Positions 1,223-54,980 of a stretch of 64,000 nt of DNA are shown one piece after another. Each line of letters opens with the position of its first letter. Position 1 is the first letter of the stretch. The position numbers were made by a program, and so were the translations under genes. The DNA is taken from NCBI GenBank assembly GCA_965226055.1, contig CBDDCA010000006.1, forward strand, positions 893,440 through 957,439. Reading direction: 5' to 3'. The notes beneath the pieces are model-generated. The model searched no databases. It had not been told where the DNA came from and worked only from the letters and a program-made list of their open reading frames with translations. Source of the DNA: Spirochaetia bacterium. Its GTDB lineage: Bacteria; Spirochaetota; Spirochaetia; WTKD01; G963693115.

Positions 1223-1366
1223 AATTCCTCCTAATTACTGTAATGTTCTTATATACAGTATACAATTATTTTGTAATTTGTAGAAACACTAAAATACTAT
1301 TTTTTGTATAATAAGAGATTATGTATATGTATAAAGAGGCAATATAATGAAAGTAAGGAGTTTTAT

Positions 1367-33119: not shown

Positions 33120-34221
33120 CTATGCTTTCTCAACTATACTTTCTAAGTATGCTTCTATAAAATGGTCTATTTCTCCATCCATAACTTTTTGTGTATCACT
33201 TGTCTCTCTATTTGTTCGGTGATCTTTTACTAAATTATATGGATGAAACACATACGAACGTATTTGGCTTCCCCATGAAATATTTAATTTTTTAGGAGAT
33301 AGAGCATTTCTTTCTTCTTGTTTTTTTTGTTCATAATGATCAAATAGTCTGCTTCGTAGAATTTTGAGTGCAGTTTGTTTATTTTTAATTTGTGAGCGTT
33401 CATTTTGACATTGTACAACAATTCCTGTTTCAATATGAGTAATGCGCACAGCAGAATCTGTTTTGTTCACATGCTGTCCTCCTGCTCCACTGGAGCGATA
33501 TGTGTCCACTCTTATTTCTTCTGGTTTTATTTCAATAGTAGTGGTATCGTTGAGTATCGGAAGGGCATGTACAGACGCAAAGGTGGTATGTCTACGATTG
33601 CTACTATCAAAAGGAGAGAGACGTACTAAGCGGTGTATTCCTGTTTCTGCTTTTAGCTGTCCGTACGCATATTCTCCTTTAATTTCTAATAACACAGACT
33701 TTATTCCTCCTTCTGAAGGTTGAATATCAAGCTCTTTTACGCTAAATTGTTTCTTTTCGCACCATCGAATATAAAGGCGATATAATAGTTTTACCCAATC
33801 GCAAGACTCTGTTCCTCCTGCTCCCGTTTGAACACTCAGATATGAATTATTGATGTCTATTTCGTTGCTAAAAAATGTATAAATTTTTAGTTGCTGAAAA
33901 TCGTGAATAAGCTGTTCATATTCTTGTTGTATTTCGTTGCTATATTCATTACTATCGTCACTTTCTTTTGCAAGTTCACAGAGAGTCTCTAAATTTTCTG
34001 TATCCTGTAGAATTTTCTCCCATTGAGATACTGAGTTTTTGAGGCTGGTTATCTGTTTAAGCACTTGTGTTGCTTGAGCAATATTTTCCCAAAAAGTTGG
34101 ATTTTGACTTTCTTGTTCTAGGCTTGTAATGTGAGAATAGGTGTCTTGTAAGTCAAAGCCGCCTCCATTGAGTAGTAATATCTTGTTTTAGTGTTTCAAC
34201 TTGTTTTATTAATTCTTCCAT
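33120..34221 (-). CDS. prfB: Peptide chain release factor 2 (programmed +1 frameshift)
   Basis: SPF and GGQ motifs; the upstream ORF from ATG 34221 (MEELIKQ...WRRL) ends at CTT-TGA-C. Confidence 0.96.
34152..34166 (-). promoter_or_regulatory. prfB +1 frameshift site
   Basis: GGAGG-CGG-CTT-TGA-C: internal SD followed by the canonical CUU UGA shift site. Confidence 0.93.
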
Positions 34222-34506
34222 ATACAAAGCATAAACTATTTTTTATTTTTGCACAAATGAATTGTAATATTTTTTTGACATCTGCTGAAACCTTTTCTGT
34301 CGCATTTAGTCCTTGAATCTGCAGAACTCGTGATAGATCGATAGCAAACATGTATAAAGTGTTGTATAATTGGATAAAGGAGGCTGGTTTAGTCTAATTT
34401 TGCTTATCCATGCCAGCTCCAAAATTAAAAGTATTGCTTATAGATTTTTATAGAGAAAATAAAGCAGAACAATCTTTGAATAAAGTATATGAAATATGTA
34501 AGAAAC

Positions 34507-36186
34507 ATGAAAAAGAAAAATGTAATTGGCATTGATTTTGGTACAGACTCAGTTCGTTGTATAATAGTTGATTCTACAAATGGAACGCTATTAAGTGAAG
34601 GTATATCTCAATTTAAGCGCTGGAAACAAGGATTATACTGTAATAATCAGATTAACCAGTTTAGACAACATCCTTTAGATTATATTGAAAGTTTAGAGGA
34701 AAGCATTAAGGAGGCGATACATACTCTTGATGCAGAGAGCATTGAAAATATTTGTGCGTTAGCCATAGATACTACTGGATCAACTCCTTGTGCTGTTGAT
34801 AAGACAGGTACTCCGCTTGCCCTTAGCAAAGAGTTTGAAAACAACCCTAATGCTATGTTTGTTTTATGGAAAGATCATACTGCTATTGCAGAAGCTACAG
34901 AAATAAATACACTTGCACACAGTGCTGCTTTTGAAGATTTTACTACCTTTGTAGGAGGAACATACTCTTCTGAGTGGTTTTGGTCTAAGATATTACATAT
35001 AATACGAATAGACACAGAAGTACGTAACGCTGCATTTTCTTGGGTAGAACATAGTGATTGGATGCCTGCATTACTTACAGGCAAAACAGATCCTACAGTG
35101 ATGAGACGTTTTCGTTGTACTGCAGGACATAAGGCTATGTGGCATACATCATTTGATGGTTTACCTTCAGAAGATTTTCTTGTTGCTCTTGATCCATTGT
35201 TAGCAGATCTTCGTTCCCGATTATATCATACTACCGATACTGCAGAGAAAATGGTAGGGCATCTTAGTCCAGAATGGGCAAAGCGTTTAGGGTTGCCTAC
35301 GCATGTTGTGGTATCAGGAGCAGCTCTTGATGCTCATTTTGGTGCTGTAGGCGGGGAAATACAAAGTCTTGATATGGTCAAGGTTATTGGTACGAGTACC
35401 TGTGATATGGTACTTGCTCCGTACTCTATAATGGAAAACAAGTTAGTGCAAGGAATTTGTGGGCAAGTTGATGGTTCAATAGTGCCGGGATATATTGGTA
35501 TGGAAGCAGGCCAATCTGCATTTGGTGATCTGTACGCTTGGTTTAAGGATATGCTCCTAGAACCTACATTGGCACTTATTGGTACTAGCACTGTACTTGA
35601 TGAACAGCAAAAGAAAGCCCTTATACAAGAATTATCAGAAAAGATGATAATGCATCTCAGTAGTGTATGTGAAAGCTATCCACCCTCTTCATCGCTGTGT
35701 GTGTTAGATTGGATAAATGGTCGGAGAACACCGTATGCTAATCAGTACCTTACGAGTGCTATATCAGGTATTACTATGGGAACAAATGCATACAAAATAT
35801 ATCATGCTCTGGTAGAATCAACAGCTTTTGGAGCAAGAAGTATACAGGACAGATTTATAGAAGAAGGCATCAATATACAACGGGTGATTGCAGTAGGGGG
35901 AGTGGCTCGTAAAAGCAATTATGTTATGCAAGTACTTGCAGATGTGTTACAGCGTAGCGTATATGTTTCTGCTGCAGATCAAGTATGTGCGTTAGGAGCA
36001 GCAATGTTTGCTTCTGTTGCAGGTGGCATCCATGCTACTATAGAAGATGCACAGAAGCATATGGGAGCTGGTTTTCAACATATTTTTCATCCTCGTAAAG
36101 AGTACATACAGCAATACGAAACACTGTATGAAAAATATAAAAAGCTCGGGAACTTTGTTGAAGCACAAACGCAGTCAATGGGATAA
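34507..36186 (+). CDS. araB: Ribulokinase (FGGY family)
   Basis: IGIDFGTDSVR, QFRQHPLDY, LWKDHTA, YSSEWFWSK, GTSTCD, EAGQSAFGD, DWINGRRTP; alternative start 34489. Confidence 0.88.
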   Translation: MKKKNVIGIDFGTDSVRCIIVDSTNGTLLSEGISQFKRWKQGLYCNNQINQFRQHPLDYIESLEESIKEAIHTLDAESIENICALAIDTTGSTPCAVDKTGTPLALSKEFENNPNAMFVLWKDHTAIAEATEINTLAHSAAFEDFTTFVGGTYSSEWFWSKILHIIRIDTEVRNAAFSWVEHSDWMPALLTGKTDPTVMRRFRCTAGHKAMWHTSFDGLPSEDFLVALDPLLADLRSRLYHTTDTAEKMVGHLSPEWAKRLGLPTHVVVSGAALDAHFGAVGGEIQSLDMVKVIGTSTCDMVLAPYSIMENKLVQGICGQVDGSIVPGYIGMEAGQSAFGDLYAWFKDMLLEPTLALIGTSTVLDEQQKKALIQELSEKMIMHLSSVCESYPPSSSLCVLDWINGRRTPYANQYLTSAISGITMGTNAYKIYHALVESTAFGARSIQDRFIEEGINIQRVIAVGGVARKSNYVMQVLADVLQRSVYVSAADQVCALGAAMFASVAGGIHATIEDAQKHMGAGFQHIFHPRKEYIQQYETLYEKYKKLGNFVEAQTQSMG

Positions 36187-36462: not shown

Positions 36463-37620
36463 ATGGATAGAAACAAAATTAAATATGGTATCATTGGTTC
36501 TGGAATGATGGGAAGGGAGCATATACAAAATATTGGCCTATTAGATACGGCTACAGTTGTTGCTATATCAGAACCCGATACAGAACAGCAGTCTATTACT
36601 CATGCTATCGTTCCTCATGCTACAATATATTCTCATCATAGAGATATGATGAAAGATACAAATATTGATGTATTTGTTATAGCATCTCCTAACTATACTC
36701 ATGCTAATATTTTATTGGATATTTGCAAAACAGATACTCGTCCTATTTTAGTAGAAAAGCCGTTGTGTACTACCATTGATTGTTGTAAAAAGATATTGGA
36801 TATAACAGCAGAGTATTCTGCTCCTATTTGGGTAGCTATGGAATATAGATATATGGAAGCAATTTCTCTTCTTATAAAAAAGGGAAAACAAGGCCTTATA
36901 GGAGAAAAAAAAATGGTATCAATAAGGGAGCATAGATTTCCTTTTTTGAAGAAGGTGGGAGATTGGAATAGATTTAATAAAAACACAGGAGGAACACTTG
37001 TAGAGAAATGCTGTCATTTCTTTGATCTTATGCGAGTGCTTATGGAAGATGAGGTTGTACGAGTGTACGCAAGCGGTGCGAAAGATGTGAATTTTTTAGA
37101 TGAGGAGTATCAGGGGCAAATTCCAGACATAATAGATAATGCATATGTAGTACTTGAGTTTCAATCAGGAAAAAGAGCTATGCTGGATTTATGTATGTTT
37201 TGTGGTGGTTCTTACTATCAAGAATATATAGCAATATTAGGCGATAAGGGAAAGTTAGAATGTAAGATTCCAGGTCCAGATAGATTATGGGCAGTAGATG
37301 ATATAAATGAACTAGGACATTCCACTGGATTTGATGGAGAACATAGAAATTCTGAGCTTGTATTTAGTCCGAGAAGTCCAAAAGGACCTGTTCATCAAGA
37401 AATAAAAGCAAATAAAACATTACGATGTGTAGGTGATCATCTAGGCTCTACTTTTTATCAGCATCAAAAGTTTAATGCTGTAGTACAAGGAGAAGGAGAT
37501 GTGGAAGTGAGTATAGAGGATGGAGTGAAATCAGTAATAATCGGGCTTATTGCAGAGAAATCTATCAGGGATCATCAAGTAATAGAGATGGGAGATATAT
37601 ATAATACCATAATAGGATAA
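36463..37620 (+). CDS. Gfo/Idh/MocA-fold protein, likely NAD+-dependent sulfoquinovosidase (GH188/SqgA-like)
   Basis: YGIIGSGMMGREH, LVEKPLCT, MEYRYM, IREHRFPFLKKVGDWNRF..NTGGTLVEKCCHFFDLM; sulfoglycolytic gene context. Confidence 0.75.
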   Translation: MDRNKIKYGIIGSGMMGREHIQNIGLLDTATVVAISEPDTEQQSITHAIVPHATIYSHHRDMMKDTNIDVFVIASPNYTHANILLDICKTDTRPILVEKPLCTTIDCCKKILDITAEYSAPIWVAMEYRYMEAISLLIKKGKQGLIGEKKMVSIREHRFPFLKKVGDWNRFNKNTGGTLVEKCCHFFDLMRVLMEDEVVRVYASGAKDVNFLDEEYQGQIPDIIDNAYVVLEFQSGKRAMLDLCMFCGGSYYQEYIAILGDKGKLECKIPGPDRLWAVDDINELGHSTGFDGEHRNSELVFSPRSPKGPVHQEIKANKTLRCVGDHLGSTFYQHQKFNAVVQGEGDVEVSIEDGVKSVIIGLIAEKSIRDHQVIEMGDIYNTIIG

Positions 37621-37652
37621 AGTAATTATAAAAATATTATAGGAGGTAAGAT

Positions 37653-38822
37653 ATGAAAAAATATTTTTATGTGATGGTATCAATAGCTCTATTGGTATCA
37701 ATAGTATTTATGAGTTGTGAAAGAGGCACAAAAGAGGCTTCTAAAATGGATGACAGCATGTCTATGAAAGATGATAAGGACAATATGTCATCAGAGATGG
37801 ATATTGATTATAATGCTCTTCCAGAAAATGTTGAGTTCACTATAGTGGCAGCAATCAATACAGGATTAGATAGCTATAACTTTAAGGCTCTTATGTTGCT
37901 TAAGAATTTTATTGAAAATGCTTCTAATGGGAGATTAGGGTTGCAAGTGTATCCAAATGGTCAGATAGCTGCAACGGTAGATGATGGATATAGGGGATTG
38001 CGGGATGGTACTATTGATATTTTTCAAGTAACAGGAGATGCCGCAAGATATTGGCCTCCAATTTCTGTATTTGATATTCCGTATATGCTTGCTGATGATA
38101 GAATTGCAGAAGCAGTACTTACTGACACTGCATTTATTGAAACATTACGAAATGGACAACTTGCTAAAAATCCTAAAATACGATTGATGATGATCACTAA
38201 TAGTGGTGGTTGGAGAAATTTTGCTACAGTAAAGAAACAAATAAAAACTCCTTCTGATGTACAGGGAGTAAAATTAAGGACAGTAGCAAGTAAAGTGCAG
38301 CAAGAGCTAGTAAAGTTGCTAGGAGGAGTTCCTACCAGTATTGCGTGGCCTGAGGTGTATACATCGTTGTCTACAGGGGTAGTTGACGGGACAAAAAATG
38401 GCGTAGTTGATATTATGACAGTTAAGTTTGATGATGTACTAAACTATATCACTCTTGATGGGCATGCGTATATGGCAGGATTTTGGATGTTTAGTCAAAC
38501 AAAATATGATATGCTTCCTGATGATTTACAGGTGGTACTCAATGATGGGTTTAGTGCTATGCAACAGTATTTATTTTCATATCCAAAGTATCAGAGTATT
38601 GAAGCATTTCGACGCTTTCGTGCTCGTGGCATAGAAATATACAAGCCTACTCCTGATGAAATCAAGGAATTTCAAAAAGAGACACAGCCAATTCAAGATT
38701 GGTTTGTAAATGAATACGCAAAGGATCATCCAGAAATACAAGAATATCTTGATTTATACAAAGCAACGATAGCAAAACAGACTGCCATGGTTGAAGCTAC
38801 CAGAAACAGAGAGAAAAATTAG
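37653..38822 (+). CDS. TRAP transporter substrate-binding lipoprotein (DctP family)
   Basis: Lipobox FMS-C; GVKLRT, WPEVYTSLSTGVVDG. Confidence 0.88.
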   Translation: MKKYFYVMVSIALLVSIVFMSCERGTKEASKMDDSMSMKDDKDNMSSEMDIDYNALPENVEFTIVAAINTGLDSYNFKALMLLKNFIENASNGRLGLQVYPNGQIAATVDDGYRGLRDGTIDIFQVTGDAARYWPPISVFDIPYMLADDRIAEAVLTDTAFIETLRNGQLAKNPKIRLMMITNSGGWRNFATVKKQIKTPSDVQGVKLRTVASKVQQELVKLLGGVPTSIAWPEVYTSLSTGVVDGTKNGVVDIMTVKFDDVLNYITLDGHAYMAGFWMFSQTKYDMLPDDLQVVLNDGFSAMQQYLFSYPKYQSIEAFRRFRARGIEIYKPTPDEIKEFQKETQPIQDWFVNEYAKDHPEIQEYLDLYKATIAKQTAMVEATRNREKN

Positions 38823-38859
38823 AGATACAAAAGAGAGATTTGTCAAAAGAGGTATTAGT

Positions 38860-39450
38860 ATGAAAGAGACGCGTGTGATATTTGTGATATATACTTTTTT
38901 ATGTAACATAAACTATTTTATTGCGAAATTGTTATCAAGAATCGCGTCTCTCCTTATTATTGCCATGAGTATTATTATTTTTGCACAGGTAGTGATGAGG
39001 TATATGTTTAGTCGCCCTTTTGAGTGGGCAGAAGAATTGACAATATATATGATGGTATATATGATGTTAATTTGTATTCCATACCTGGTTATTATGAATA
39101 AAAATATCGCTATGACAATCTTTTATGAAAAAATTGCAGGGACACGACTTGGGTTTCTTTTTGATGTAGTGATACATGTATCGTTTCTCACTATTATCAT
39201 TTTGTGGCTTCCTCTTGGAATACGGTTGTTTGTTGATAGTAGAGAAATACTTGCAGCCCAGATGCCAATAACAAGAGATTGGCTTTATTCCAGCGTTCCT
39301 ATAAGTTTTGTAATTACTCTTGTTATTTGTCTGCAAAAAATCATGAGAAGTGTTGTGTGTCTTATACGGGTAGATATGCATGCTTCCTTTCTTGCCATTG
39401 AGAAGCGATTTGAACAATCTGAAACGGCAATATATGAGATAACAACATAA
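38860..39450 (+). CDS. TRAP transporter small permease (DctQ)
   Basis: QVVMRYMFSRPFEWAEEL; four TM helices. Confidence 0.88.
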   Translation: MKETRVIFVIYTFLCNINYFIAKLLSRIASLLIIAMSIIIFAQVVMRYMFSRPFEWAEELTIYMMVYMMLICIPYLVIMNKNIAMTIFYEKIAGTRLGFLFDVVIHVSFLTIIILWLPLGIRLFVDSREILAAQMPITRDWLYSSVPISFVITLVICLQKIMRSVVCLIRVDMHASFLAIEKRFEQSETAIYEITT

Positions 39451-39461
39451 GGAGAATTTTC

Positions 39462-40751
39462 ATGACTATAGTGTTTTTTGTAGTATTTTTTGCTCTCATG
39501 CTTTTGGGGGTACCAGTATTTTATTCTTTGCTTATGGCTCCTATTTTTGAAGTGCTTTTATCAGGAGAAATGCGATTTATTTCGTTACTTTTTAATAAAT
39601 TTATTGGTTCTGTTGAAAGTTTTCCATTACTTGCATTACCTTTTTTTATTTTTGCTGGTGCTATTATGGGAAGAGGAGGAATAATCAAAGGCATTGTAGA
39701 TTTTTCTCAATCAATGATTGGTCATAAAAAAGGAGGCTTAGGGCATGTAGTAATAATGTCTTCAACTCTTTTTTCAAGTTTGACAGGATCAGCAGTGGCG
39801 GCAACCTCAGCTATTGGAAAAATGTTAATTCCTGAAATGGAAAGAAAAGGCTATCCGAGAGTATACGCTTCTGCAATAACCGCTGCATCAACAGTGTTGG
39901 GTCCTATTATTCCTCCGAGTGGAATAATGATTATTTATGCTCTTGTTATGAACGAGTCTATTGCTAATATGTTTATAGCAGGGATAGTTCCTGGAGTATT
40001 AATTTCACTGGGACTGATGATCATTAATTTTTTGATATGCGAAAAGAAAGGCTATGATTATCGTGTGCCAAAATCTACAACAAAAGAGCGGTTTGTAGCA
40101 TTTTTGAAAGCACTTCCTTCTCTGTTAGCTCCTATCATAATATTAGGAGGTATTTATGGAGGAATTTTTACTCCTACAGAAGCTGCTGCAGTTGCGGTAA
40201 TTTATGCCTTAGTGTTGTGTTTGTTTGTACTAAAGACCTTAAAATTAAAAGATATATTTATTATTGGGCTTGAATCTTGTGTTTCTTCTGCGGCAATATT
40301 AGTACTGGTGGGAGCAGCAAGTAGTTTCGCTGCTATTGTAGGACTATCACCCTTATCAAAGTACATTGCTATTGTTACGTCCTCTATTACCAGTAATCCT
40401 TATGTCTTATTTTTCATCATCAATATAATATTACTTATTATTGGTATGTTTATGGATGCTGGACCAGCAATACTTATTTTTGCTCCAATTCTTGCTACCC
40501 CGCTCTTACGCTTAGGCATAGACCCTCTTCATTTTGGAGTAGTAATGAGTATTATTGTTACCTTAGGATTAGCAACACCTCCTATGGGACTTGTATTGTT
40601 TGTTGCATCGGATATATCAAAAATATCCTTAGAAAAGATAGCTTTAGAAGCCTTGCCATTTTTGATATTAGAAATAGTGATGGTATTTTTGTTTACTTTC
40701 TTTCCTATTCTTATACTAGGGTTGCCTCGATTATTAGGAATGATACAGTAA
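39462..40751 (+). CDS. TRAP transporter large permease (DctM)
   Basis: PLLALPFFIFAG, TGSAVA, IIPPSG, GIFTPTEAA, TPPMG. Confidence 0.93.
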   Translation: MTIVFFVVFFALMLLGVPVFYSLLMAPIFEVLLSGEMRFISLLFNKFIGSVESFPLLALPFFIFAGAIMGRGGIIKGIVDFSQSMIGHKKGGLGHVVIMSSTLFSSLTGSAVAATSAIGKMLIPEMERKGYPRVYASAITAASTVLGPIIPPSGIMIIYALVMNESIANMFIAGIVPGVLISLGLMIINFLICEKKGYDYRVPKSTTKERFVAFLKALPSLLAPIIILGGIYGGIFTPTEAAAVAVIYALVLCLFVLKTLKLKDIFIIGLESCVSSAAILVLVGAASSFAAIVGLSPLSKYIAIVTSSITSNPYVLFFIINIILLIIGMFMDAGPAILIFAPILATPLLRLGIDPLHFGVVMSIIVTLGLATPPMGLVLFVASDISKISLEKIALEALPFLILEIVMVFLFTFFPILILGLPRLLGMIQ

Positions 40752-40813
40752 TGTAAGTAATATAATAGTAGTAGAAATCAAATTTTAAAAATCAAAACAT
40801 AGGAGTAAAAAAT

Positions 40814-41572
40814 ATGATAAAAGAAGGAAAAAAATTTCATAGGGAGTATGCAACATGTGAATTAAAAGAGATTTTTAATCAATCTAATTCTAATTTAGAT
40901 TTTTTAAGTCTTGCAGAATTACATATTGAACATACTCGATCAATGACCTTAAGTTATAAACAAGAGGAATGTTTAATTTTTAATATAGGATCTCCCGTTC
41001 ATTGTGTAGTGGAAGGAAAGAAATATATATTAGATACGCGTGATGTATTGTATGTGCCGATTGATACTGTGTTTTATGTTGAACATAAAGATAAGAAAGA
41101 GAAAGGATTATTATACATATATAGGGCGGTAGGTGATGAAAAGTACACGGTATTTCATTCGAAATGGAAAAAGATGAAATTAGACAAAAATCGCTTACGT
41201 GTATTACATCGAAAAGACGTATTCTTGATGTTTGATGTTTCTGAAAAAGCCAATAAGTTTATGGCAGGGTATACATTCTATCAAGACAGAACAAGAGCAT
41301 GGCCACCGCATAATCATCGTGATCAAGAAGAATGCTATAGTTTTATTGAAGGAAGTGGGGCAATGCAAGTATATGAAGATGATGAGCATATGTCGTTTGT
41401 GAAATCTGTAAAGGTAGGCGATCATATTACTATTCCATTGTTGAACTATCATCCTGTGTTTAGTCATGAAGAGCCTCTATGTTTTATCTGGTGTATTGCA
41501 GGAGAAAGATATTGGGTAGGAGATAAAAGTAAAGATTTTATGAAAGGAAAAGGAGCTAGCATTACTACATAA
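40814..41572 (+). CDS. IolB/KduI-like cupin isomerase (candidate sulfoquinovose isomerase)
   Basis: WPPHNHRDQEECYSF and YHPV metal-binding motifs typical of IolB/KduI bicupins. Confidence 0.75.
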   Translation: MIKEGKKFHREYATCELKEIFNQSNSNLDFLSLAELHIEHTRSMTLSYKQEECLIFNIGSPVHCVVEGKKYILDTRDVLYVPIDTVFYVEHKDKKEKGLLYIYRAVGDEKYTVFHSKWKKMKLDKNRLRVLHRKDVFLMFDVSEKANKFMAGYTFYQDRTRAWPPHNHRDQEECYSFIEGSGAMQVYEDDEHMSFVKSVKVGDHITIPLLNYHPVFSHEEPLCFIWCIAGERYWVGDKSKDFMKGKGASITT

Positions 41573-41649
41573 AAACTATGTTGGTAGTGTATACTATAAC
41601 AAAAAAATATATCAATACATGACACTATAAGATATAAAGGAGGAATATA

Positions 41650-42324
41650 ATGAAATATTTTTTAGATAGTGCAAAATTAGATGAGATTGATGAAGCATTT
41701 CATACATTTGGAATAGATGGGGTGACTACTAATCCTAATCATGTTAAAGTGAGTGGTAAAACGCATAAACAAATTATTGATGATTTGTCAGCATGGGCAA
41801 AAAAGAATGCTCCCTCTAGTTTTCCTATTTCTATTGAAATAAATCCTCACTTAAACAAGGCTGAGGATATGTTACAGGAAGCACATGCTATTGCAAAAAT
41901 ATCGGAGTATTTTGTCATAAAGTTACCATGTACTCATGCAGGGTTATTGGCAGCAAGGCAACTTGAAGAGCAGAAAATTAGAACAAATATTACGCTTGTT
42001 TTTTCTCCTTCACAGGCTTTGGCTGCAGCAAAAGTAAACGCTTCGTTTGTATCGCCTTTTCTGGGATGGAAAGAAAATAGCGGGGAAGATTGTACAGAAT
42101 ATCTTTCGACTATTCGTGTTATACTCAATAACTTTGATACATTATCTAAAACAGAAGTGATTACTGCAGCAATAAGAAATGGTAAGCAGATTGCTGATGC
42201 TGCCGCTATTGGTCTTGATATTGTCACCTGTGGTTTAGCTGTGTATAAAGAAAGTTTTTATCATCCTTTTACTGATTTTGGATTAAAGAAATTTCAGGAT
42301 GCTTGGGATGCTACTGCAAAGTAA
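41650..42324 (+). CDS. Transaldolase, sulfofructose transaldolase (SqvA/SftT)-like
   Basis: MKYFLDSA, DGVTTNP, FPISIEINPHL, FVIKLPCT, FVSPFLGWKENSG, AAIRNGKQ, YKESFYHPFTDFGL; GW replaces the GR of ordinary transaldolases. Confidence 0.8.
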   Translation: MKYFLDSAKLDEIDEAFHTFGIDGVTTNPNHVKVSGKTHKQIIDDLSAWAKKNAPSSFPISIEINPHLNKAEDMLQEAHAIAKISEYFVIKLPCTHAGLLAARQLEEQKIRTNITLVFSPSQALAAAKVNASFVSPFLGWKENSGEDCTEYLSTIRVILNNFDTLSKTEVITAAIRNGKQIADAAAIGLDIVTCGLAVYKESFYHPFTDFGLKKFQDAWDATAK

Positions 42325-42327
42325 AAC

Positions 42328-42966
42328 ATGAAACAAGTACATGTAGATACTGCAATGGCTGTTGATGATATATCGTTTCATCGTTATGGTAGGCAGATAT
42401 TTGATATTAATGTTGACGAATCAATACATATAGTCTCTTCATTATCGTTACCGCAAGAAGGCAATGAATATACTCCGTCCTTTGCTCGTCTGGAAGATAC
42501 TCAAGAATATCTCTCTATTAAAAAGTATGTGTTTGGTGATGTTGATATACAGGCAGGGTTTTGTAATGGATGGAATAATCGTCTCAATGCCTTAGAGTTT
42601 CATAAAAGCTCAGAAGTGATTATTGCAGTATCTTCGTTTGTTCTTATTCTTGGTGTGCCAGAATATATGCAAGAAGACAATACCTATGATACTGCTCATG
42701 TCGAGTGTTTCCTTGTTCCTCAAGGGGCAGTAGTAGAGTTGTATCCTAAGGTGTTGCATTTTGCTCCATGTAAAATACATGATGATGGATTTCGGAGTGT
42801 TATTATATTGCCTCGTGGAACAAACACTGTACTTTCAGATTCTCTTGTGGCATCGTATCTTTTTAGAAAAAATAAATGGTTGCTTGCACATGAGGATGCA
42901 CATTGGTTATGTAATCAGGGTGCAGTACCATTATTACGTGGTGAAAATATAGAGATTATATCTTAG
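42328..42966 (+). CDS. DUF4867 family protein (SftX/SqvB-like)
   Basis: IQAGFCNGWNNRLNALEFHKSSE, VELYPKVLHFAPC, LPRGTN, NKWLLAH. Confidence 0.85.
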   Translation: MKQVHVDTAMAVDDISFHRYGRQIFDINVDESIHIVSSLSLPQEGNEYTPSFARLEDTQEYLSIKKYVFGDVDIQAGFCNGWNNRLNALEFHKSSEVIIAVSSFVLILGVPEYMQEDNTYDTAHVECFLVPQGAVVELYPKVLHFAPCKIHDDGFRSVIILPRGTNTVLSDSLVASYLFRKNKWLLAHEDAHWLCNQGAVPLLRGENIEIIS

Positions 42967-42977
42967 GGAATTTTTGG

Positions 42978-43733
42978 ATGGATCTGTATACACTATTGTT
43001 AATGGCTCTTATAGTACTATTTTCTTATACTATAGGCACTATTGCGGGGTTTGGTCCTACTATTTTGGCGTTACCTTTGATGTTATTTCTGCATGAACTC
43101 TCTTTTGTTCGTCCACTGCTTACTTTGCTGGGGATGTTGCTTGCGTGGGTTGTATGTGCATCTATGTATACACATATACATAAAAGAATATTTTTTGTTA
43201 TACTAGGAGTAATGGGAGCAGGGCTTCCTATAGGTATTTTTCTGTACTCTTACTTAAATAAGGATGTTTTGCTTGTAATAGTAGGGATATTTACCTTGTT
43301 TGTATCGGTAAAAGGGCTTATTGATACCTCTTTCTCTACGAAAGAGATGTATTTACCTCATTGGGTGTTATATATGGCGTTATTCTTTGCAGGAATAGTA
43401 CATGGAGCTTTTTCTACAGGTGGACCGTTGCTGATAATATATAGCTCTCAAATGATAAAAGATAAAACAAAATTTAGAGCCACACAAGTTGCAATATGGA
43501 GTATACTAAATTTAGTACTGGTATTACAGTTATTTGTATTTGTTCCTCATGGTGCTTTTAAGCCAGGATGGGATGAGTATAAAATATATGTATTGATGTT
43601 GCCAGTATTGTTGATAGCTATAGTGTTGGGTAAATATCTTGAAAAAAGAGTTTCCCAATTATTATTTAGGAGATTAATATATGCACTTCTATTTGTTAGT
43701 GCATGTAGTATTTTAATTATGAGTGTGTTTTAA
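42978..43733 (+). CDS. TauE/SafE sulfite/organosulfonate exporter
   Basis: GTIAGFG..ILALP, AGIVHGAFSTGGPL, KFRAT; multi-TM. Confidence 0.85.
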   Translation: MDLYTLLLMALIVLFSYTIGTIAGFGPTILALPLMLFLHELSFVRPLLTLLGMLLAWVVCASMYTHIHKRIFFVILGVMGAGLPIGIFLYSYLNKDVLLVIVGIFTLFVSVKGLIDTSFSTKEMYLPHWVLYMALFFAGIVHGAFSTGGPLLIIYSSQMIKDKTKFRATQVAIWSILNLVLVLQLFVFVPHGAFKPGWDEYKIYVLMLPVLLIAIVLGKYLEKRVSQLLFRRLIYALLFVSACSILIMSVF

Positions 43734-43734
43734 T

Positions 43735-44934
43735 ATGGATGTGAATTTTAATAATACAGAACGAAGAATTCTTCGTGAGATATTTAAGAATTCAGAAATA
43801 TCACAAATAGATATTTCTAATACTTTAAATGTTACTAGTGCTGCTATATCGCAGTATACTAATAAACTTATTCAGCAGAATATTGTTCAGCAGAAAGGAA
43901 ATATTCCTACTCGTGCTGTAGGGAGAAATAAGGTCATACTGGGGCTAAATGCAAGTTTTGGATATGTAGTAGGGATAGCTTTTGAGTTTGATCATATTGA
44001 GTTTACTATAGCTAATTGTGTAGGAGAAAGCCTTACTCATAAAGTTGAGCATGGCGTGCTAAGTACAATAAAAGAGCCATGGCTAAAAAAGCTCCCTGAT
44101 CTGTTTAAGAGTGAAATAAAAAAATTAAAATTATTTCCATCCCAAATAGTAGGGGTTGGGATAACTTCTCCAGGAACAGAATTACAGGGATCTGGACATC
44201 ATACGGAACTGAATATTATTAATGAACTTGCAAAGCAAGCACAGCAGTATTTTGAACATGAATATAGTTATACGGTAGTACATGGGAATAATGTGCATAG
44301 TATTGCATGTGCAGAATATATGCTAAATGAGTTTGATGATAATTTTATCTGTGTGAAATATGGACCAAGAATAGGTATTTCTTTTTGGATAAATGGTAAG
44401 CTCTTTAAGGGTTCTCATGGATTTGCAGGAGAGATAGGGCATATGCAGTTACCTATTGATGCAATGTATGACATAACGTGTGATGTGTGTGGTAAAAAAG
44501 GATGTTTGGAGTCAATGATATCAGAACGTTATATACGAAAGATAATAAAAAGTATTCCAAACTACAAAAAAACATTTTCATATTTATTTGAAGATGGTGT
44601 ATCAATAGATGGATTAAAGGTACACACTGTATTTAAGTATGCACATAAACACGAGAAACTTAGCAACATTATGGATCATACAATCAAGTGTATTGGAACA
44701 ATACTTTCTATTGTTGAGAAGATAATAGATTCAAAACGTATTATTTTATTTGGAAAAAGTTTTTTAGAAGACTCTTTTTATCAATCAGTATATGATACAA
44801 TTATTGAGATGTGTAAACCTATTTCAGATATCACTATAGTAAAAGCAAAAGTAGAACCACATTACAAAGTAATAGGGGCAGTGTTTCTTATCCTTATGAA
44901 AGTGTTTTATATAGAACAAGAGATAGATATTTAA
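43735..44934 (+). CDS. ROK family transcriptional regulator
   Basis: N-terminal wHTH, GFAGEIGHM, CDVCGKKGCLE Zn motif. Confidence 0.9.
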   Translation: MDVNFNNTERRILREIFKNSEISQIDISNTLNVTSAAISQYTNKLIQQNIVQQKGNIPTRAVGRNKVILGLNASFGYVVGIAFEFDHIEFTIANCVGESLTHKVEHGVLSTIKEPWLKKLPDLFKSEIKKLKLFPSQIVGVGITSPGTELQGSGHHTELNIINELAKQAQQYFEHEYSYTVVHGNNVHSIACAEYMLNEFDDNFICVKYGPRIGISFWINGKLFKGSHGFAGEIGHMQLPIDAMYDITCDVCGKKGCLESMISERYIRKIIKSIPNYKKTFSYLFEDGVSIDGLKVHTVFKYAHKHEKLSNIMDHTIKCIGTILSIVEKIIDSKRIILFGKSFLEDSFYQSVYDTIIEMCKPISDITIVKAKVEPHYKVIGAVFLILMKVFYIEQEIDI

Positions 44935-45051: not shown

Positions 45052-46128
45052 ATGAAGAAGTATTTTTTCATTTCATTGTTATTTTTGTTGTTTTTTACAA
45101 CTGTATTGAGTATTATTGGTTGTGGTAAGCAAAAGCAGTCTTCACAATCAGGTGCTTCCTCGCGAGGTACAAGTGAGGCAGTTGATAGTATGTCTCAGAT
45201 TACTATTAAATTAAGTCATCCGTCTGGTGCTGTTGCAGGGGATCCAATACATGAAGCGGCAATGCTCATGCAGACATTGCTTGAAGAAAAAAGTAATGGT
45301 GTCATTAAGGTACAGGTATATCCCGGTGGACAGCTAGGATCAGAATCAAGAAATGTACAGGATGTACAAAGTGGTATTGTAGAGATGGCTATGATTACTG
45401 CTGGTAATATGATATCATATTCACCTTCATTTGGGGTATTAGATTTTCCATATCTTTTTCAATCAAGAGAAGAAGCATGGAAAGCTATAGATGCAATAAA
45501 AGAAACGTTTACCACATTGCAAGTGAGAGAAAGTGGTACAAGGACAATAGCATGGTTAGAACAAGGGTTTCGTAATATTACTAATTCTAAAAAGGCAATA
45601 ACATCGCTTAATGATTTACAAGGGCTAAAGATACGTGTGCCTAACAATAAATTTGTTATTGCTGCGTTTAAGTCATGGGATATTAACCCTGTTCCTATTG
45701 CATGGGATGAAGTATTTTCAAGTTTACAACAAGGGGTTGTTGATGGCCAAGAGAATCCATATGTTAGTATTTATGTACATAAAATGTATGAGATGCAAAA
45801 ATATGTTACAGATATACACTATAAAATATGGGTAGGTGTTTTTATTGTAAATGAAGATTGGTTTCAAAATCTTTCTGTTGATGTACAAAGGGTAATTTTA
45901 CAAGCAGGGGAGGAAGTTACTCAATTTAATAGAGATATGATAGTCGAAGTAGAGAATGAAACAAGACAGAAACTGATTGATAATGGAATGATACTTTCTG
46001 GGACACCAAGTGATGAACAAGAATGGGCAAGAAGAGCGATGAGTGTATGGCCTCAATTTTATGATGCGCTTCCTGACATAACAGTGTTAGATGATGTAAT
46101 GTCTGCACTAGGAAGACAAAGACCATAA
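45052..46128 (+). CDS. TRAP transporter substrate-binding lipoprotein (DctP family)
   Basis: Lipobox IIG-C; YPGGQLG, GFRNIT, GLKIRVP, LQQGVVDGQENP. Confidence 0.92.
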   Translation: MKKYFFISLLFLLFFTTVLSIIGCGKQKQSSQSGASSRGTSEAVDSMSQITIKLSHPSGAVAGDPIHEAAMLMQTLLEEKSNGVIKVQVYPGGQLGSESRNVQDVQSGIVEMAMITAGNMISYSPSFGVLDFPYLFQSREEAWKAIDAIKETFTTLQVRESGTRTIAWLEQGFRNITNSKKAITSLNDLQGLKIRVPNNKFVIAAFKSWDINPVPIAWDEVFSSLQQGVVDGQENPYVSIYVHKMYEMQKYVTDIHYKIWVGVFIVNEDWFQNLSVDVQRVILQAGEEVTQFNRDMIVEVENETRQKLIDNGMILSGTPSDEQEWARRAMSVWPQFYDALPDITVLDDVMSALGRQRP

Positions 46129-46129
46129 T

Positions 46130-46600
46130 ATGTATAAAAAAATACTTACCAAGATTGACTCAATAGAAGAGCTTATTGCAAGTATTTGTATTTTTATCAT
46201 TCCTAGTATACTGTTTGTTCAGCTGGTATTGCGTTCTTTTAATATAGGGTTTGCTTGGTTTGAAGAGGTGCTACGATTTAGCTTTTTGCTATTAGTATAT
46301 TCTGCAAGTGTTATAGGAGTAAAAAAAGATTCTCATTTTTCATTGACTTTTTTTGTTGATAGGGTATCGGTGAAAGTACAAAAATACCTTGCGATACTAA
46401 AATATGGCATATGGTTTTTATTGAATGGTATTATTGTATATCAATCTATACTGTACATACAAACATTATTTGTTCGTCCACAGACCTCTCCAGTATTGGA
46501 AATTAATATGGCATGGATATACGCTATTATTCCTATTATGTTTATATTACAGACGATTAGAATGATTCAGCTTATTATCAGAAAAATAAGAGGAACATGA
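46130..46600 (+). CDS. TRAP transporter small permease (DctQ)
   Basis: QLVLR..WFEEVLR; four TM helices. Confidence 0.85.
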   Translation: MYKKILTKIDSIEELIASICIFIIPSILFVQLVLRSFNIGFAWFEEVLRFSFLLLVYSASVIGVKKDSHFSLTFFVDRVSVKVQKYLAILKYGIWFLLNGIIVYQSILYIQTLFVRPQTSPVLEINMAWIYAIIPIMFILQTIRMIQLIIRKIRGT

Positions 46601-46601
46601 A

Positions 46602-47879
46602 ATGGATAATATAATATGGCTTTTATTGTTTTTGTTATTACTACTAGGAGTTCCTATTTGGGTATCGTTAGGAATGGCTACTGTTACTTTTTTGTTTATG
46701 ACAGGGACTCCTCTTTCTATTATTCCTATTGATATAAGTAAAGTGTCAGATCTGTATCCATTGCTTGCAATACCTTCGTTTGTGTTTGCGGGTTGTATTA
46801 TGGAGCAAGGAGGAATAGCAAAGCAAATTGTTGAAGTAGCACATCTTATTGTAGGGAAAGTCAAAGGAGGCTTAGCAATAGTTACCATTATTGGCTGTAT
46901 GTTTTTTGCTGCAATGATTGGCTCAGGTCCAGGAACTGTTGCCGCAATGGGATCTATTATGATACCAGCTATGGTACGACAAGGATATGGTAAGATATAT
47001 GCTTCTGGGGTAAGTGCTACTGGAGGTACTCTGGGAATATTGATTCCTCCAAGTAATCCTCTTATTATATATGGAGTGATGGCAAATGTTTCTGTAAGCT
47101 CTCTTTTTCTTGCAGGGTTTTTTCCTGGTTTGGTAGGAGGAATAATGCTTATTATGGTTGCTCTTGTTGTGGCAAAGAAACGTAACTTGCCTGTTGTTGA
47201 GAAAACATATACTGTGCAGGATGCTATGAGGATAATAAGGAAGAATTTTTTTTCTTTGCTGACTCCTTTTATTATTCTTGGAGGAATATACGGAGGTATT
47301 TTTACTCCAGTGGAAGCGTCTTCTGTAGCGGTGGTATATGCTCTATTGGTGGGAAAATTTATAAACAAAACACTTACATGGGAAGGGGTAAAAAAATCGC
47401 TTACTCTTACTTCTGTTACTTCAGGGACCTCTCATATTATTATAGGGGTATCTATTTTGTTTGGCAGATTCCTTACTATCAATCAGATACCACAGAATTT
47501 TGCAGCAACAATGCTTGCTGTCAGTACAAATCCAATTATAGTGCTGTTATTGATAGTACTGTTACTGTATTTTTTAGGAATGTTTATGGAAACCTTGTCA
47601 ACGATAGTTATCCTTGTTCCTATTCTTATGCCTGTGATACATCAGTTAGGAATTGATCCTATCTATTTTGGCATTTTATGGATTGTAACAAATCAAGTAG
47701 CTTTGATAAGTCCTCCATTAGGAGCTAATCTTTTTATTGCTATGAATTTATCAAATACAAGCCTAGAAGAAACTGCTTTTGGTACTCTTCCTTTTTTAGT
47801 AGGCTTAGTTATTTTTACGTTGCTTATATTGTTTGTTCCATCTATTTCCTTATTTTTACCGCAGTTATTTAGTAATTAG
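46602..47879 (+). CDS. TRAP transporter large permease (DctM)
   Basis: PLLAIPSF, LIPPSNP, GIFTPVEAS, SPPLGANLF. Confidence 0.93.
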   Translation: MDNIIWLLLFLLLLLGVPIWVSLGMATVTFLFMTGTPLSIIPIDISKVSDLYPLLAIPSFVFAGCIMEQGGIAKQIVEVAHLIVGKVKGGLAIVTIIGCMFFAAMIGSGPGTVAAMGSIMIPAMVRQGYGKIYASGVSATGGTLGILIPPSNPLIIYGVMANVSVSSLFLAGFFPGLVGGIMLIMVALVVAKKRNLPVVEKTYTVQDAMRIIRKNFFSLLTPFIILGGIYGGIFTPVEASSVAVVYALLVGKFINKTLTWEGVKKSLTLTSVTSGTSHIIIGVSILFGRFLTINQIPQNFAATMLAVSTNPIIVLLLIVLLLYFLGMFMETLSTIVILVPILMPVIHQLGIDPIYFGILWIVTNQVALISPPLGANLFIAMNLSNTSLEETAFGTLPFLVGLVIFTLLILFVPSISLFLPQLFSN

Positions 47880-47887
47880 GAGAATAT

Positions 47888-48892
47888 ATGAGAAGTGTAT
47901 TTATTGATACAATAGGGCATCTTGATGTACGTGATTCTGCCTATCCTCGTTTACAGAAAGGAAGCTCAATTATAAAAGTGGTGTATTCTGGCATATGTGG
48001 TTCAGATATACATGTATATCATGGAAAGCAACCTCGTGTACAGCCTCCTACACAATTTATTTTAGGGCATGAAGCGAGTGGTATTGTACATGAAACATAT
48101 AACAAAGAACTTCAAGTAGGAACTGCTGTTGCTCTATTTCCTTACAAGAGTTGTGGCACATGTGCCGTATGTCGTATAGGAAAACATCAGCTTTGTGTGC
48201 AAAGGGAGTTTTTAGGATTTCAAAGAGATGGTACTTTTGCAGACTATGTGTTAGTACCAGATGATGATATTTTTGTTCTTCCTTCGACTATGACAATAAG
48301 AGAAGGGGCTTTTGTCGAGCCGTTTGCGGTAGCTATTCATGCTATAGAGTTGAGTAACATACAAAAAAAGTCTTGTCTTATTGTTGGGGGAGGAACAATA
48401 GGCTTGTGTATTGGTATTGCTTTGAGAGAAGTGTATGGTATAAAAGAGGTGATATTTGTAGAGATAAATAAAAAAAGGGCTGAATGTATAACGGATCATC
48501 TATTTTCCTGTGTATCTGATATAAGCAATGAGTTGGGGGCTATTGATACGGTGTTTGAATGTTCTGGAAATGATAGTGTATTGAGATCTCTATTGGCAGT
48601 GGATCCTCCATTGCGAGAACTTATCATAGTAAGTACTTTTCCACGTGATAAGAGTATTCCTATTTTTGAAATGACAAAAAAAGAGATACTCTGTATTGGG
48701 AGTCAAGCGTATCAAAAACAAGATTTTAAGAAATCGCTGGAATGTATTGCGCATAGCGAGACTATTAAACATTTTTTGTCTGATATTGTAGAAACAAGGG
48801 AGTATTCTTTAGAAGAAGCTAATGGTGCTTTTCAAACTGCAGTATCTTTGCACAGTAAACCAAAGGTATTGTTTAAGGTTGCAGATATATAA
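47888..48892 (+). CDS. Zinc-dependent alcohol dehydrogenase (MDR family)
   Basis: GICGSD, LGHE, CGTCAVCRIGKHQLC, VEP, GGGTIG. Confidence 0.9.
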   Translation: MRSVFIDTIGHLDVRDSAYPRLQKGSSIIKVVYSGICGSDIHVYHGKQPRVQPPTQFILGHEASGIVHETYNKELQVGTAVALFPYKSCGTCAVCRIGKHQLCVQREFLGFQRDGTFADYVLVPDDDIFVLPSTMTIREGAFVEPFAVAIHAIELSNIQKKSCLIVGGGTIGLCIGIALREVYGIKEVIFVEINKKRAECITDHLFSCVSDISNELGAIDTVFECSGNDSVLRSLLAVDPPLRELIIVSTFPRDKSIPIFEMTKKEILCIGSQAYQKQDFKKSLECIAHSETIKHFLSDIVETREYSLEEANGAFQTAVSLHSKPKVLFKVADI

Positions 48893-48981
48893 CTGTTTTT
48901 TCTTTTTTTGCATATTGATCGTATATACTGTACGGCATATAGTATGGTATAACTGATATAGTATATACAAGGAAGTACGAT

Positions 48982-54779: not shown

Positions 54780-54869
54780 ACTTATTTATCTGTAAGCGGC
54801 ATATCTCTATTGTAGCATTATTAGTATATATTGCTATAGTGCATGTATATTTTTTTGTATTTCATCGCA

Positions 54870-54883
54870 TTTTTTTTTTTTTT
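54870..54883 (+). repeat. T14 homopolymer upstream of the third lipoprotein gene
   Basis: 14 consecutive T in the divergent murD/lipoprotein intergenic region. Confidence 0.85.
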
Positions 54884-54980
54884 AATTTATAGAGATAACA
54901 CAAAAAATAGTATTTGTACTATAATGATGCTTAGGTGTAATGATAATTATACAATAATAGATACCAACAAGGAGATCATT

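Follow-up and report, generated by a model that had tools for sequence, protein, structure and literature searches.

The 64,000-nucleotide stretch of spirochaete DNA analysed here (the window; GC content ~35%) belongs to a genome of 2.25 Mb in six contigs (G000; 89% complete), whose nearest relatives are metagenome-assembled genomes labelled Spirochaetia. It carries a same-strand array of nine genes (36463-44934, +), which either overlap or are separated by gaps of 3-77 nt. The fifth of these genes encodes a cupin for which a reading of the DNA sequence alone (the sequence-only reading) had proposed a role as a new class of sulfoquinovose (SQ) isomerase. The genes of the array and the metal-binding motifs of the cupin are as follows (positions on the window):

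36463..37620, +, NAD+-dependent sulfoquinovosidase SqgA (GH188, Gfo/Idh/MocA fold); phmmer E 1.1e-109 to 8qc3 and 1.8e-105 to 8qc2
37653..38822, +, TRAP solute-binding subunit DctP; PF03480, E 2.7e-55
38791..39450, +, TRAP small permease DctQ; PF04290, E 1.3e-21
39462..40751, +, TRAP large permease DctM; PF06808, E 2.6e-103
40814..41572, +, KduI/IolB-family bicupin, candidate isomerase of SQ and 6-deoxy-6-sulfofructose (SF); PF04962, 35.9 bits; AlphaFold2 (AF2) model with a predicted local distance difference test (pLDDT) score of 95; comparative genomics
41300..41338, +, WPPH166-N-H168-x4-E173-x-Y175 metal-binding motif in the C-terminal cupin barrel; conservation and alignment to KduI 9kd0
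41447..41455, +, Y212-H213-P214 with the fourth metal ligand; H213 aligned with a His of KduI 9kd0 and at least 90% conserved in the broader alignment (A2, below)
41650..42324, +, sulfofructose transaldolase; E 1.3e-80 to the solved Bacillus megaterium BmSF-TAL (8bc3)
42328..42966, +, DUF4867 cupin (SftX/SqvB), proposed ring-opener or mutarotase; PF16161, E 3.8e-64; E 9.7e-50 to 9gyy
42978..43733, +, TauE/SafE-type anion exporter; PF01925, E 1.4e-20
43723..44934, +, ROK-family regulator with an N-terminal winged helix; PF00480 and PF13412

The open reading frame (ORF) of the cupin starts with ATG, is preceded by a ribosome-binding site (taggag, 8 nt upstream), and encodes 252 amino acids (aa) that match the Pfam family KduI (PF04962) over residues 23-235, above the gathering score of 23.9. 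This match and the 1189 relatives (E ≤ 1e-3) found among 1501 candidates of a word-index search document a real and conserved gene. Both metal motifs noticed in the sequence-only reading (PPHxH...EE.Y and YHP) are present in the protein, the former reading in full W-P-P-H166-N-H168-R-D-Q-E-E173-C-Y175.

Where the literature deals with the sulfo-transaldolase (sulfo-TAL) pathway, the isomerisation of SQ is assigned to SftI/SqvD, a fucose-isomerase homolog of the family PF02952 (PMC11968277, PMC9594981, PMC7491151). The array combines an SF transaldolase, an SqgA-type sulfoquinovosidase, a TauE exporter, and DUF4867, as expected of sulfo-TAL clusters, and its gene content marks it as a predicted cluster of this type that lacks the known SQ isomerases. 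The solved relatives of the first gene product are ArSqgA (8qc3) and FlSqgA (8qc2), both NAD+-dependent sulfoquinovosidases (PMC10755693). The sequence-only reading had overlooked this identity (E 1e-110 to 8qc3/8qc2) and treated the gene as IolG-like; the sole IolG-like match in the window (124.6 bits vs a cut-off of 355) indeed falls on SqgA. Its other statements on the array fared better. The cupin gene lies directly upstream of the SqvA-like transaldolase, at a distance of 77 nt, and IolC, IolD, and IolE are absent from the 38 scanned proteins of the window (Pfam; NCBIfam on 20 of them). That the cupin is the only isomerase-like gene in the cluster is defensible but incomplete, because the second cupin (DUF4867/SftX), two genes downstream, went unmentioned. 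At the corresponding cluster of the closest relative (L006; cupin 74% identical), which comprises TRAP, SqgA, cupin, transaldolase, and TauE, tblastn with marker proteins detected no DUF4867 within 10 kb, and the cupin is the only isomerase-like gene.

DUF4867 regularly accompanies SftI and has been proposed to act as a mutarotase or ring-opener (PMC11968277, PMC9594981). The passages on SftX in PMC11968277 report negative mutarotase and kinase assays and, for the homolog of B. megaterium, a melting temperature that is not shifted by SQ or SF. DUF4867 was considered as the SQ isomerase and rejected, since the papers give that role to SftI/SqvD (PF02952).

Family, fold, and conserved residues of the cupin

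The cupin is remote from the curated subfamilies of PF04962. It reaches 25.4 bits against the IolB equivalog model TIGR04378 (curated cut-off 205) and 33.4 bits against the KduI equivalog NF002091 (curated cut-off 250), which is far below in both cases. A set of 22 family members and relatives scores 22-124 bits against TIGR04378, and the 21 proteins other than the window cupin likewise remain below the IolB and KduI cut-offs. Two canonical paralogs of PF04962 are encoded elsewhere in the window genome (G000:C5:146350-147096 and G000:C6:62304-62996; 230 and 176 bits), so that the window copy appears, by sequence, to be a divergent third member. The best 120 of the 1189 relatives are 51-97% identical to the cupin and 194-269 aa long (most of them 251-255 aa); those with a name originate mostly in Spirochaetes and were annotated as 5-deoxy-glucuronate isomerase by the Prokaryotic Genome Annotation Pipeline (PGAP). 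An exhaustive phmmer search against 1.84 billion representatives returned just 91 clusters at E ≤ 1e-3 (17 at E ≤ 1e-30), whose distant members are IolB-like (68-124 bits to TIGR04378, below its cut-off).

Conservation was assessed in an alignment of 28 close homologs with 51-77% identity (A1) and in one of 52 sequences that includes the IolB-like relatives (A2). In A1, 63 columns are invariant, including all four metal ligands. In A2, D77, G152, H166, H168, and E173 are invariant. H166, H168, and E173 align with the H-x-H...E motif of KduI 9kd0, and together with the aligned histidine at position 213 they correspond to the zinc ligands of KduI. Eight residues (R104, R127, R129, R161, N167, R232, Y233, and W234) are constant among the close homologs and different in the IolB-like sequences, which makes them candidates for the recognition of a sulfonate group.

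The AF2 model built from A2 predicts a two-barrel bicupin fold like that of solved KduI and IolB-like proteins; a model built from A1 was discarded because its pLDDT fell below 50 for residues 159-252. The best structural matches are KduI 7yrs (Z 24.3; root-mean-square deviation (rmsd) of 2.3 over 218 residues), the IolB-like protein STM4420 (2qjv; Z 24.3, with the best TM-score of 0.74), and KduI of Escherichia coli (1xru; Z 23.5), with generic bicupins following ~2 Z units behind (Z ~22). According to their entry titles, the structures 7yrs, 7ye3, and 7e4s of KduI from Lactobacillus rhamnosus are complexes with MOPS, MES, and HEPES, all of which are sulfonate buffers. If these buffers occupy the substrate anion site of KduI, this would fit a relative that binds a sulfonate sugar.

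Distribution of the cupin and of canonical SQ isomerases

The presence of a canonical SftI or YihS at another site of the genome, named in the sequence-only reading as potential counter-evidence, was checked with models, tblastn, and a follow-up of PF02952 and PF07221 proteins; neither enzyme was found. The cupin itself matches neither PF02952 nor NF048012 (Pfam, NCBIfam) nor PF07221 (Pfam scan), which places it by sequence outside SftI/SqvD and YihS. The SftI model NF048012, which scores 158 bits in a control genome (G264), has no match at E ≤ 0.01 in three genomes, namely that of the window, that of its congener G527 (a single contig), and the complete, cupin-bearing G434. Likewise, two SftI-type queries from related spirochaetes gave no tblastn match (E < 0.01) anywhere in the window genome, and none in the 80 cupin loci and 14 unlinked clusters described below. 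The window genome encodes one RpiB (PF02502), located on another contig (C4) and away from the cluster, and no SqwI-like RpiB at E ≤ 1e-45.

Two proteins of the window genome were examined as possible hidden isomerases; the first was rejected as an SftI, and the second received no support as a YihS. The sole PF02952 match is weak (27-29.5 bits) and belongs to a 542-aa protein 440 kb away, which has no NF048012 match, a BLASTP E of 0.89 to an SftI-type protein, and no relative in the PDB, and whose gene lies among ABC-transporter genes and a DNA methylase. Its match is borderline and of the Fucose_iso_C type (G000:C6:491255; L001:1405-3033, L120:10160-11788), and the gene adjoins an ABC transporter; G527 and G566 also have PF02952 matches, located in open reading frames of 555 and 549 aa. 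The single PF07221 protein, a member of the acylglucosamine 2-epimerase (AGE) family, has its gene next to a mevalonate operon, which it follows. Cellobiose and N-acylglucosamine 2-epimerases make up the solved relatives of this protein at E ≤ 1e-3 as well as its NCBIfam matches, and none of its relatives occurs in any cupin locus.

The gene neighbourhoods of cupin homologs were scanned in one genome per species, which gave 103 confirmed loci, 80 of which were kept, from five named phyla. A simple ORF caller performed poorly in high-GC loci, where just 50 of the 80 cupins clustered; hence, loci were classed by tblastn with marker proteins, which divergent genes can escape. The cupin lies beside sulfo-transketolase (sulfo-TK) genes in 30 of the 80 loci and beside a transaldolase in 17; 7 loci show partial signatures, and 26 show none of the markers. 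The sulfo-TK set consists of a split transketolase, the RpiB-type SqwI, a CoA-acylating aldehyde dehydrogenase, a two-subunit CoA ligase, and an Na/sulfonate-type symporter, frequently joined by GH31, DUF4867, and a divergent ROK gene. Within the 400 nt that follow the cupin, 18 loci have the transketolase N-subunit and 5 the transaldolase. Around the cupin homologs, genes for TauE exporters and for SqgA or YihQ-type enzymes occur repeatedly, ROK regulators flank the cupin in many related loci, and DUF4867 occurs together with the cupin in 16 of the 80 loci as well as in the window.

In a quick IQ-TREE phylogeny, the window protein groups with the cupins of L005 and L006, both of the transaldolase type, and this group is sister to a 20-member clade in which 19 loci are of the sulfo-TK type. 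The sister cupins of L045 and L046 belong to a transketolase and a transaldolase cluster, respectively.

None of the 80 loci shows an iol operon among its scanned neighbours. The Pfam scan, which covered representatives of the 40 commonest neighbour clusters and parts of ~20 loci, detected neither an IolD-type thiamine-pyrophosphate hydrolase nor an IolC-type PfkB kinase. Neighbouring Gfo/Idh/MocA and TIM-barrel proteins score 65-131 bits, whereas IolE and IolG require 290 and 355, respectively. The aldehyde dehydrogenase of the sulfo-TK locus L011 is best matched by the model of acylating sulfoacetaldehyde dehydrogenase (501 bits vs a cut-off of 600) and those of transaldolase loci by models of the succinate-semialdehyde, lactaldehyde, and sulfoacetaldehyde types, whereas a malonate/methylmalonate-semialdehyde (IolA-type) model is absent from the 25 best matches of the neighbouring aldehyde dehydrogenases. 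These scores argue that the homologs do not sit in iol operons, and the same scores led to the rejection of an inositol-pathway reading of the loci outside the spirochaetes.

Those loci (L059, L063, L067, L070, L072, L084, L073, and L079) belong to Acidobacteriota, Planctomycetota, Verrucomicrobiota, and Bacteroidota. They combine the cupin with transporters of the MFS or SSF families, a transaldolase or split transketolase, and TauE, and also contain aldehyde dehydrogenases resembling succinate-semialdehyde dehydrogenase (SSADH) or of the lactaldehyde type, Gfo/Idh/MocA oxidoreductases, and 3-keto-disaccharide hydrolases. They may represent unrecognised sulfoglycolytic clusters with an oxidative module for glycoside cleavage.

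The co-occurrence of the cupin with sulfoglycolytic genes and its exclusion of SftI, which the sequence-only reading had suggested for a test, were evaluated in 401 genomes sampled evenly across the class, with an SqwI-like protein (E ≤ 1e-45) as the sulfo-TK marker and a cupin threshold of E ≤ 1e-40; this sample replaced a phylum-level one that was too sparse (cupin 3/401, marker 5/401). The cupin is present in 33 genomes and the marker in 67, with 26 genomes containing both, 7 the cupin only, 41 the marker only, and 327 neither. Three of the cupin-only genomes are of the sulfo-TAL type (G000, G527, and G566), and the other four are 77-94% complete. A PF02952 match (E ≤ 0.01) on the same contig and ≤30 kb from the marker was found in 25 of the 41 cupin-less marker genomes vs none of the 26 cupin-bearing ones, and a match of at least 125 bits to NF048012 in 32 of 41 vs 0 of 26 (maximum 105 bits). 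Two more cupin-less genomes have a truncated or split match to the SftI model (119 bits; 69 and 66 bits in one frame). The SftI-type gene is surrounded by GH31, DUF4867, or sulfo-TK genes in four cupin-less genomes (G264, G377, G528, and G582). In G377, the GH31 protein scores above the cut-off of PRK10426, an NCBIfam model named alpha-glucosidase, which is presumably the model of YihQ. Both states, cupin-bearing and cupin-less, occur inside each of three families (f70, f83, and f87). The cupin thus tracks sulfo-TAL and sulfo-TK clusters in a pattern complementary to that of SftI.

Many of the loci without markers turned out to belong to genomes whose sulfo-TK cluster is located elsewhere. An SqwI-like RpiB with 67-77% identity is encoded outside the cupin locus in 18 of the 25 such genomes that were searched (L014 was left out), and all 14 clusters fetched from these 18 genomes are full sulfo-TK clusters. 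None of the 14 contains a cupin or an SftI-type gene (tblastn), which leaves these unlinked clusters without any recognised SQ isomerase. In an 11-member clade of the Sediminispirochaeta type, the neighbours of the cupin include GH36 and peptidase U32 as well as phosphoglucomutase, a histidine kinase, and housekeeping genes. At one locus (L036:10765-12995), the GH36 alpha-galactosidase beside the cupin is split into two ORFs of 328 and 399 aa, in place of the single one of ~740 aa in relatives, which may be due to a frameshift or an assembly error.

Role of the cupin and rival explanations

KduI and IolB are metal-dependent aldose-ketose isomerases whose six-carbon sugar substrates bear an anionic group at the distal end. 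SqwI and DUF4867 are retained in clusters that have SftI; therefore, SftI is the element that is exchanged one-for-one with the cupin. The two pathways accompanied by the cupin, sulfo-TAL and sulfo-TK, have only SQ and SF in common. Since the exchanged element, the shared intermediates, and the chemistry of the related enzymes all point to the same step, the cupin is probably, as judged from gene context, a non-orthologous SQ/SF aldose-ketose isomerase that has displaced SftI. The proposal that the cupin fills the missing step from SQ to SF is thereby supported in its reading of the locus, and none of the three computational checks suggested along with it went against it; the activity itself is inferred. 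The evidence also leans towards the broader view that the cupins constitute a third, unrelated family of SQ isomerases after YihS and SftI/SqvD, which was recruited from the KduI/IolB family, displaced SftI in many Spirochaetota, and also marks sulfoglycolytic clusters that have so far escaped recognition in Acidobacteriota, Planctomycetota, Verrucomicrobiota, and Bacteroidota.

In the pathway proposed for the window genome, the TRAP system, presumably an uptake system for SQ or SQ-glycerol, would import SQ or sulfoquinovosyl glycerol, and SqgA would release SQ. The cupin would convert SQ to SF at a metal site formed by His166, His168, Glu173, and His213, possibly by an enediol-type mechanism like that of KduI and IolB on six-carbon sugars with a distal carboxylate, and would stand in for SftI/SqvD of the fucose-isomerase family by non-orthologous displacement. 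The transaldolase would then move C1-C3 of SF to glyceraldehyde 3-phosphate, yielding fructose 6-phosphate and sulfolactaldehyde, and the resulting C3 sulfonate would leave the cell via the TauE/SafE-type protein, the presumed exporter of the sulfonate product.

Several observations weigh against this interpretation. The sulfo-TK clusters hold SqwI, an isomerase of the RpiB/LacAB family that could in principle isomerise SQ, and the loci outside the spirochaetes encode xylose-isomerase-like TIM barrels and NagB-like proteins as further isomerase-like candidates. The cupin lies ≤30 kb from a sulfo-TK marker in just 8 of the 26 genomes of the class sample that contain both, and its unlinked position in the Sediminispirochaeta-type clade weakens the linkage argument for that clade. 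The window genome is only 89% complete, and many cupin-bearing genomes have distant PF02952 paralogs outside SQ clusters (50-105 bits to the SftI model). The Fisher values (6.6e-8, and 1e-16 for the association at genome level) are overstated because related genomes are not independent. Finally, in 7 of the 41 marker genomes without the cupin, there is no clear sign of either enzyme: G550 (97% complete) scores at most 66 bits and G494 92 bits, and the other five, which are 79-91% complete, have no match or only a fragment. The sulfo-TK cluster of G550 (L123, G550:C65:144500-164400; TKN, TKC, RpiB, TauE, and aldehyde dehydrogenase) contains neither a cupin nor an SftI-type gene, and this genome may have found yet another isomerase solution.

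The main alternative, which we regard as unlikely, assigns the cupin an accessory function in SQ catabolism (as a ring-opener, a mutarotase, or an enzyme of an anomer-specific step on SQ or SF), with SQ being isomerised by SqwI in sulfo-TK clusters or by an unrecognised enzyme in the window genome. It would agree with the fact that the family of SqwI isomerises 6-phospho-hexoses, and with the unlinked position of the cupin relative to the sulfo-TK cluster in 18 of the 26 sampled genomes. Cupins such as KdgF and, as proposed, DUF4867 are ring-opening enzymes (PMC11968277), and SqwI is described in the pertinent part of PMC9594981 as an enzyme whose activity has not been measured directly. However, the window genome has kept its full SqgA-transaldolase cluster without encoding an SqwI-like RpiB, and the exchanged element is SftI, not SqwI or DUF4867. 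Because DUF4867 co-occurs with the cupin at the window and at 16 of the 80 loci, the cupin is also no substitute for DUF4867.

A role as an ordinary carboxylate-sugar isomerase of the KduI/IolB type, acting on uronate- or inositol-derived sugars, would imply that the cupin is merely co-located with the SQ genes or takes part in a kinase-free, inositol-like route in which the transaldolase cleaves 2-deoxy-5-keto-gluconate. Membership in the Pfam family KduI and the PGAP name of the relatives speak for such a role, and the Gfo/Idh/MocA protein, xylose-isomerase-like TIM barrel, transaldolase, and aldehyde dehydrogenase of the non-spirochaete loci loosely recall IolG, IolE, and IolA. It is nevertheless quite improbable in view of the low equivalog scores of the cupin, the 21 further proteins, and the neighbouring gene products, the lack of IolA-, IolC-, and IolD-type proteins among the scanned neighbours, the recurrence of TauE and SqgA or YihQ-type genes, and the two canonical PF04962 paralogs already present in the genome. 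That the cupin is a non-catalytic protein with a ligand-binding or regulatory function, as are some cupins that serve as sensors or storage proteins (PMC11968277), is barely credible: the four metal ligands and ~60 other positions do not vary in the 28 sequences of A1 (51-77% identity), the Pfam scan detected no DNA-binding domain in the cupin, and the cluster already has a ROK regulator.

If the cupin is indeed the SQ isomerase, a known pathway step would be carried out by an unrelated enzyme family. This would be a clear-cut example of non-orthologous displacement, with the scaffold of a carboxylate-sugar isomerase retuned to a sulfonate sugar, and would explain why many sulfo-TK and sulfo-TAL clusters of spirochaetes seemingly lack their first enzyme. 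SQ, an abundant sulfosugar of plants, is produced at ~10 billion tonnes a year (PMC10755693, PMC12890257), and the survey procedure outlined in PMC13372026 finds degraders by BLAST matches to known enzymes, including 'SQ isomerase'. Surveys that require a match to SftI or YihS would then undercount SQ degraders, and the cupin would provide a new marker gene that extends predicted sulfoglycolysis to phyla not listed in the relevant sections of a 2026 review (PMC12890257). The same review names SqvD as the isomerase of both sulfo-TAL and sulfo-TK, Spirochaetes included. Full-text searches, which do not extend to supplements, found no literature linking a KduI/IolB-type family or a cupin isomerase to sulfoquinovose, and the search terms for a cupin isomerase have no hit in the searchable text of PMC13219744, PMC13436972, PMC13372026, and PMC12890257.

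Surroundings of the array and comparison with known systems

A sulfolactaldehyde reductase or dehydrogenase is not encoded within the nine-gene array; two strong PF03446 proteins are encoded elsewhere in the genome, and the only GH31 gene is located on another contig. Downstream of the array (45052-50247), another TRAP system (DctPQM) precedes the genes of a Zn-dependent alcohol dehydrogenase (47888-48892) and of an ABC solute-binding protein. This alcohol dehydrogenase may be the sulfolactaldehyde reductase that the array lacks, or may serve another sugar pathway. An FGGY kinase (34489-36186; 696 bits vs the ribulokinase equivalog cut-off of 428) is encoded 277 nt upstream of SqgA; an association of DUF4867 with FGGY kinases is frequent (PMC11968277). 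A promoter scan of the window returned 78 sites vs a shuffle mean of 76.2. Terminator-like sites number 12 vs 6.4 expected (sd 2.6), and none lies between genes of the array.

Farther from the array, the ORF of release factor 2 (33120-34064, -; 314 aa) aligns with the prfB model from position 47 onwards only, which would be expected with an N-terminal part that is encoded in another frame and joined by a programmed +1 frameshift. Three giant proteins of 1838, 2520, and 1625 aa (1304-6820, 7742-15304, and 54843-59720) are built of DUF285, fibronectin-III, and He_PIG repeats, and the GC content has a trough of 0.255 at 16-18 kb.

Among the known systems, KduI (1xru, 7yrs, and 9kd0) resembles the cupin in its bicupin fold (Z 23.5-24.3, rmsd 2.3-2.4 over ~218 residues), in the aligned H-x-H-x4-E...H metal motif, and in its Pfam family (PF04962). 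However, the identity is only 15-19%, the score of the cupin (33.4 bits) is far from the KduI cut-off of 250, pectin or uronate genes are absent from its vicinity, and its proposed substrate bears a sulfonate. IolB is equally close in structure (IolB-like STM4420, 2qjv; TM-score 0.74, Z 24.3), and the distant relatives of the cupin are IolB-like. Yet the cupin scores 25.4 bits vs a cut-off of 205 against the IolB model, equivalogs of iolC, iolD, iolE, iolG, and iolA are lacking in the window and among the scanned neighbours, and the IolB-like relatives lack the residues that are invariant in the subfamily (R104, R127, R129, R161, N167, R232, Y233, and W234).

SftI/SqvD shares with the cupin the proposed reaction, the position in the pathway, and the position in the cluster, and the distributions of the two are mutually exclusive. 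The proteins themselves have no sequence relationship, and SftI/SqvD, a member of the fucose-isomerase family with ~445-475 aa, has a fold unrelated to that of the 252-aa bicupin. The reaction proposed for the cupin is also identical to that of YihS, whose fold is an alpha/alpha barrel. YihS is the SQ isomerase of the sulfo-Embden-Meyerhof-Parnas (sulfo-EMP) pathway and belongs to the N-acylglucosamine 2-epimerase family (PF07221), which the cupin does not match; according to the section of PMC9594981 that compares the two known isomerases, SqvD is metal-dependent, whereas YihS does not depend on a divalent metal. DUF4867 (SftX/SqvB; 9gyy), finally, is a metal-binding cupin encoded in sulfoglycolytic clusters like the cupin of the window, but belongs to a different family (PF16161). 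As it accompanies SftI in canonical clusters and the KduI/IolB-type cupin in the window, it is not the element that was exchanged.

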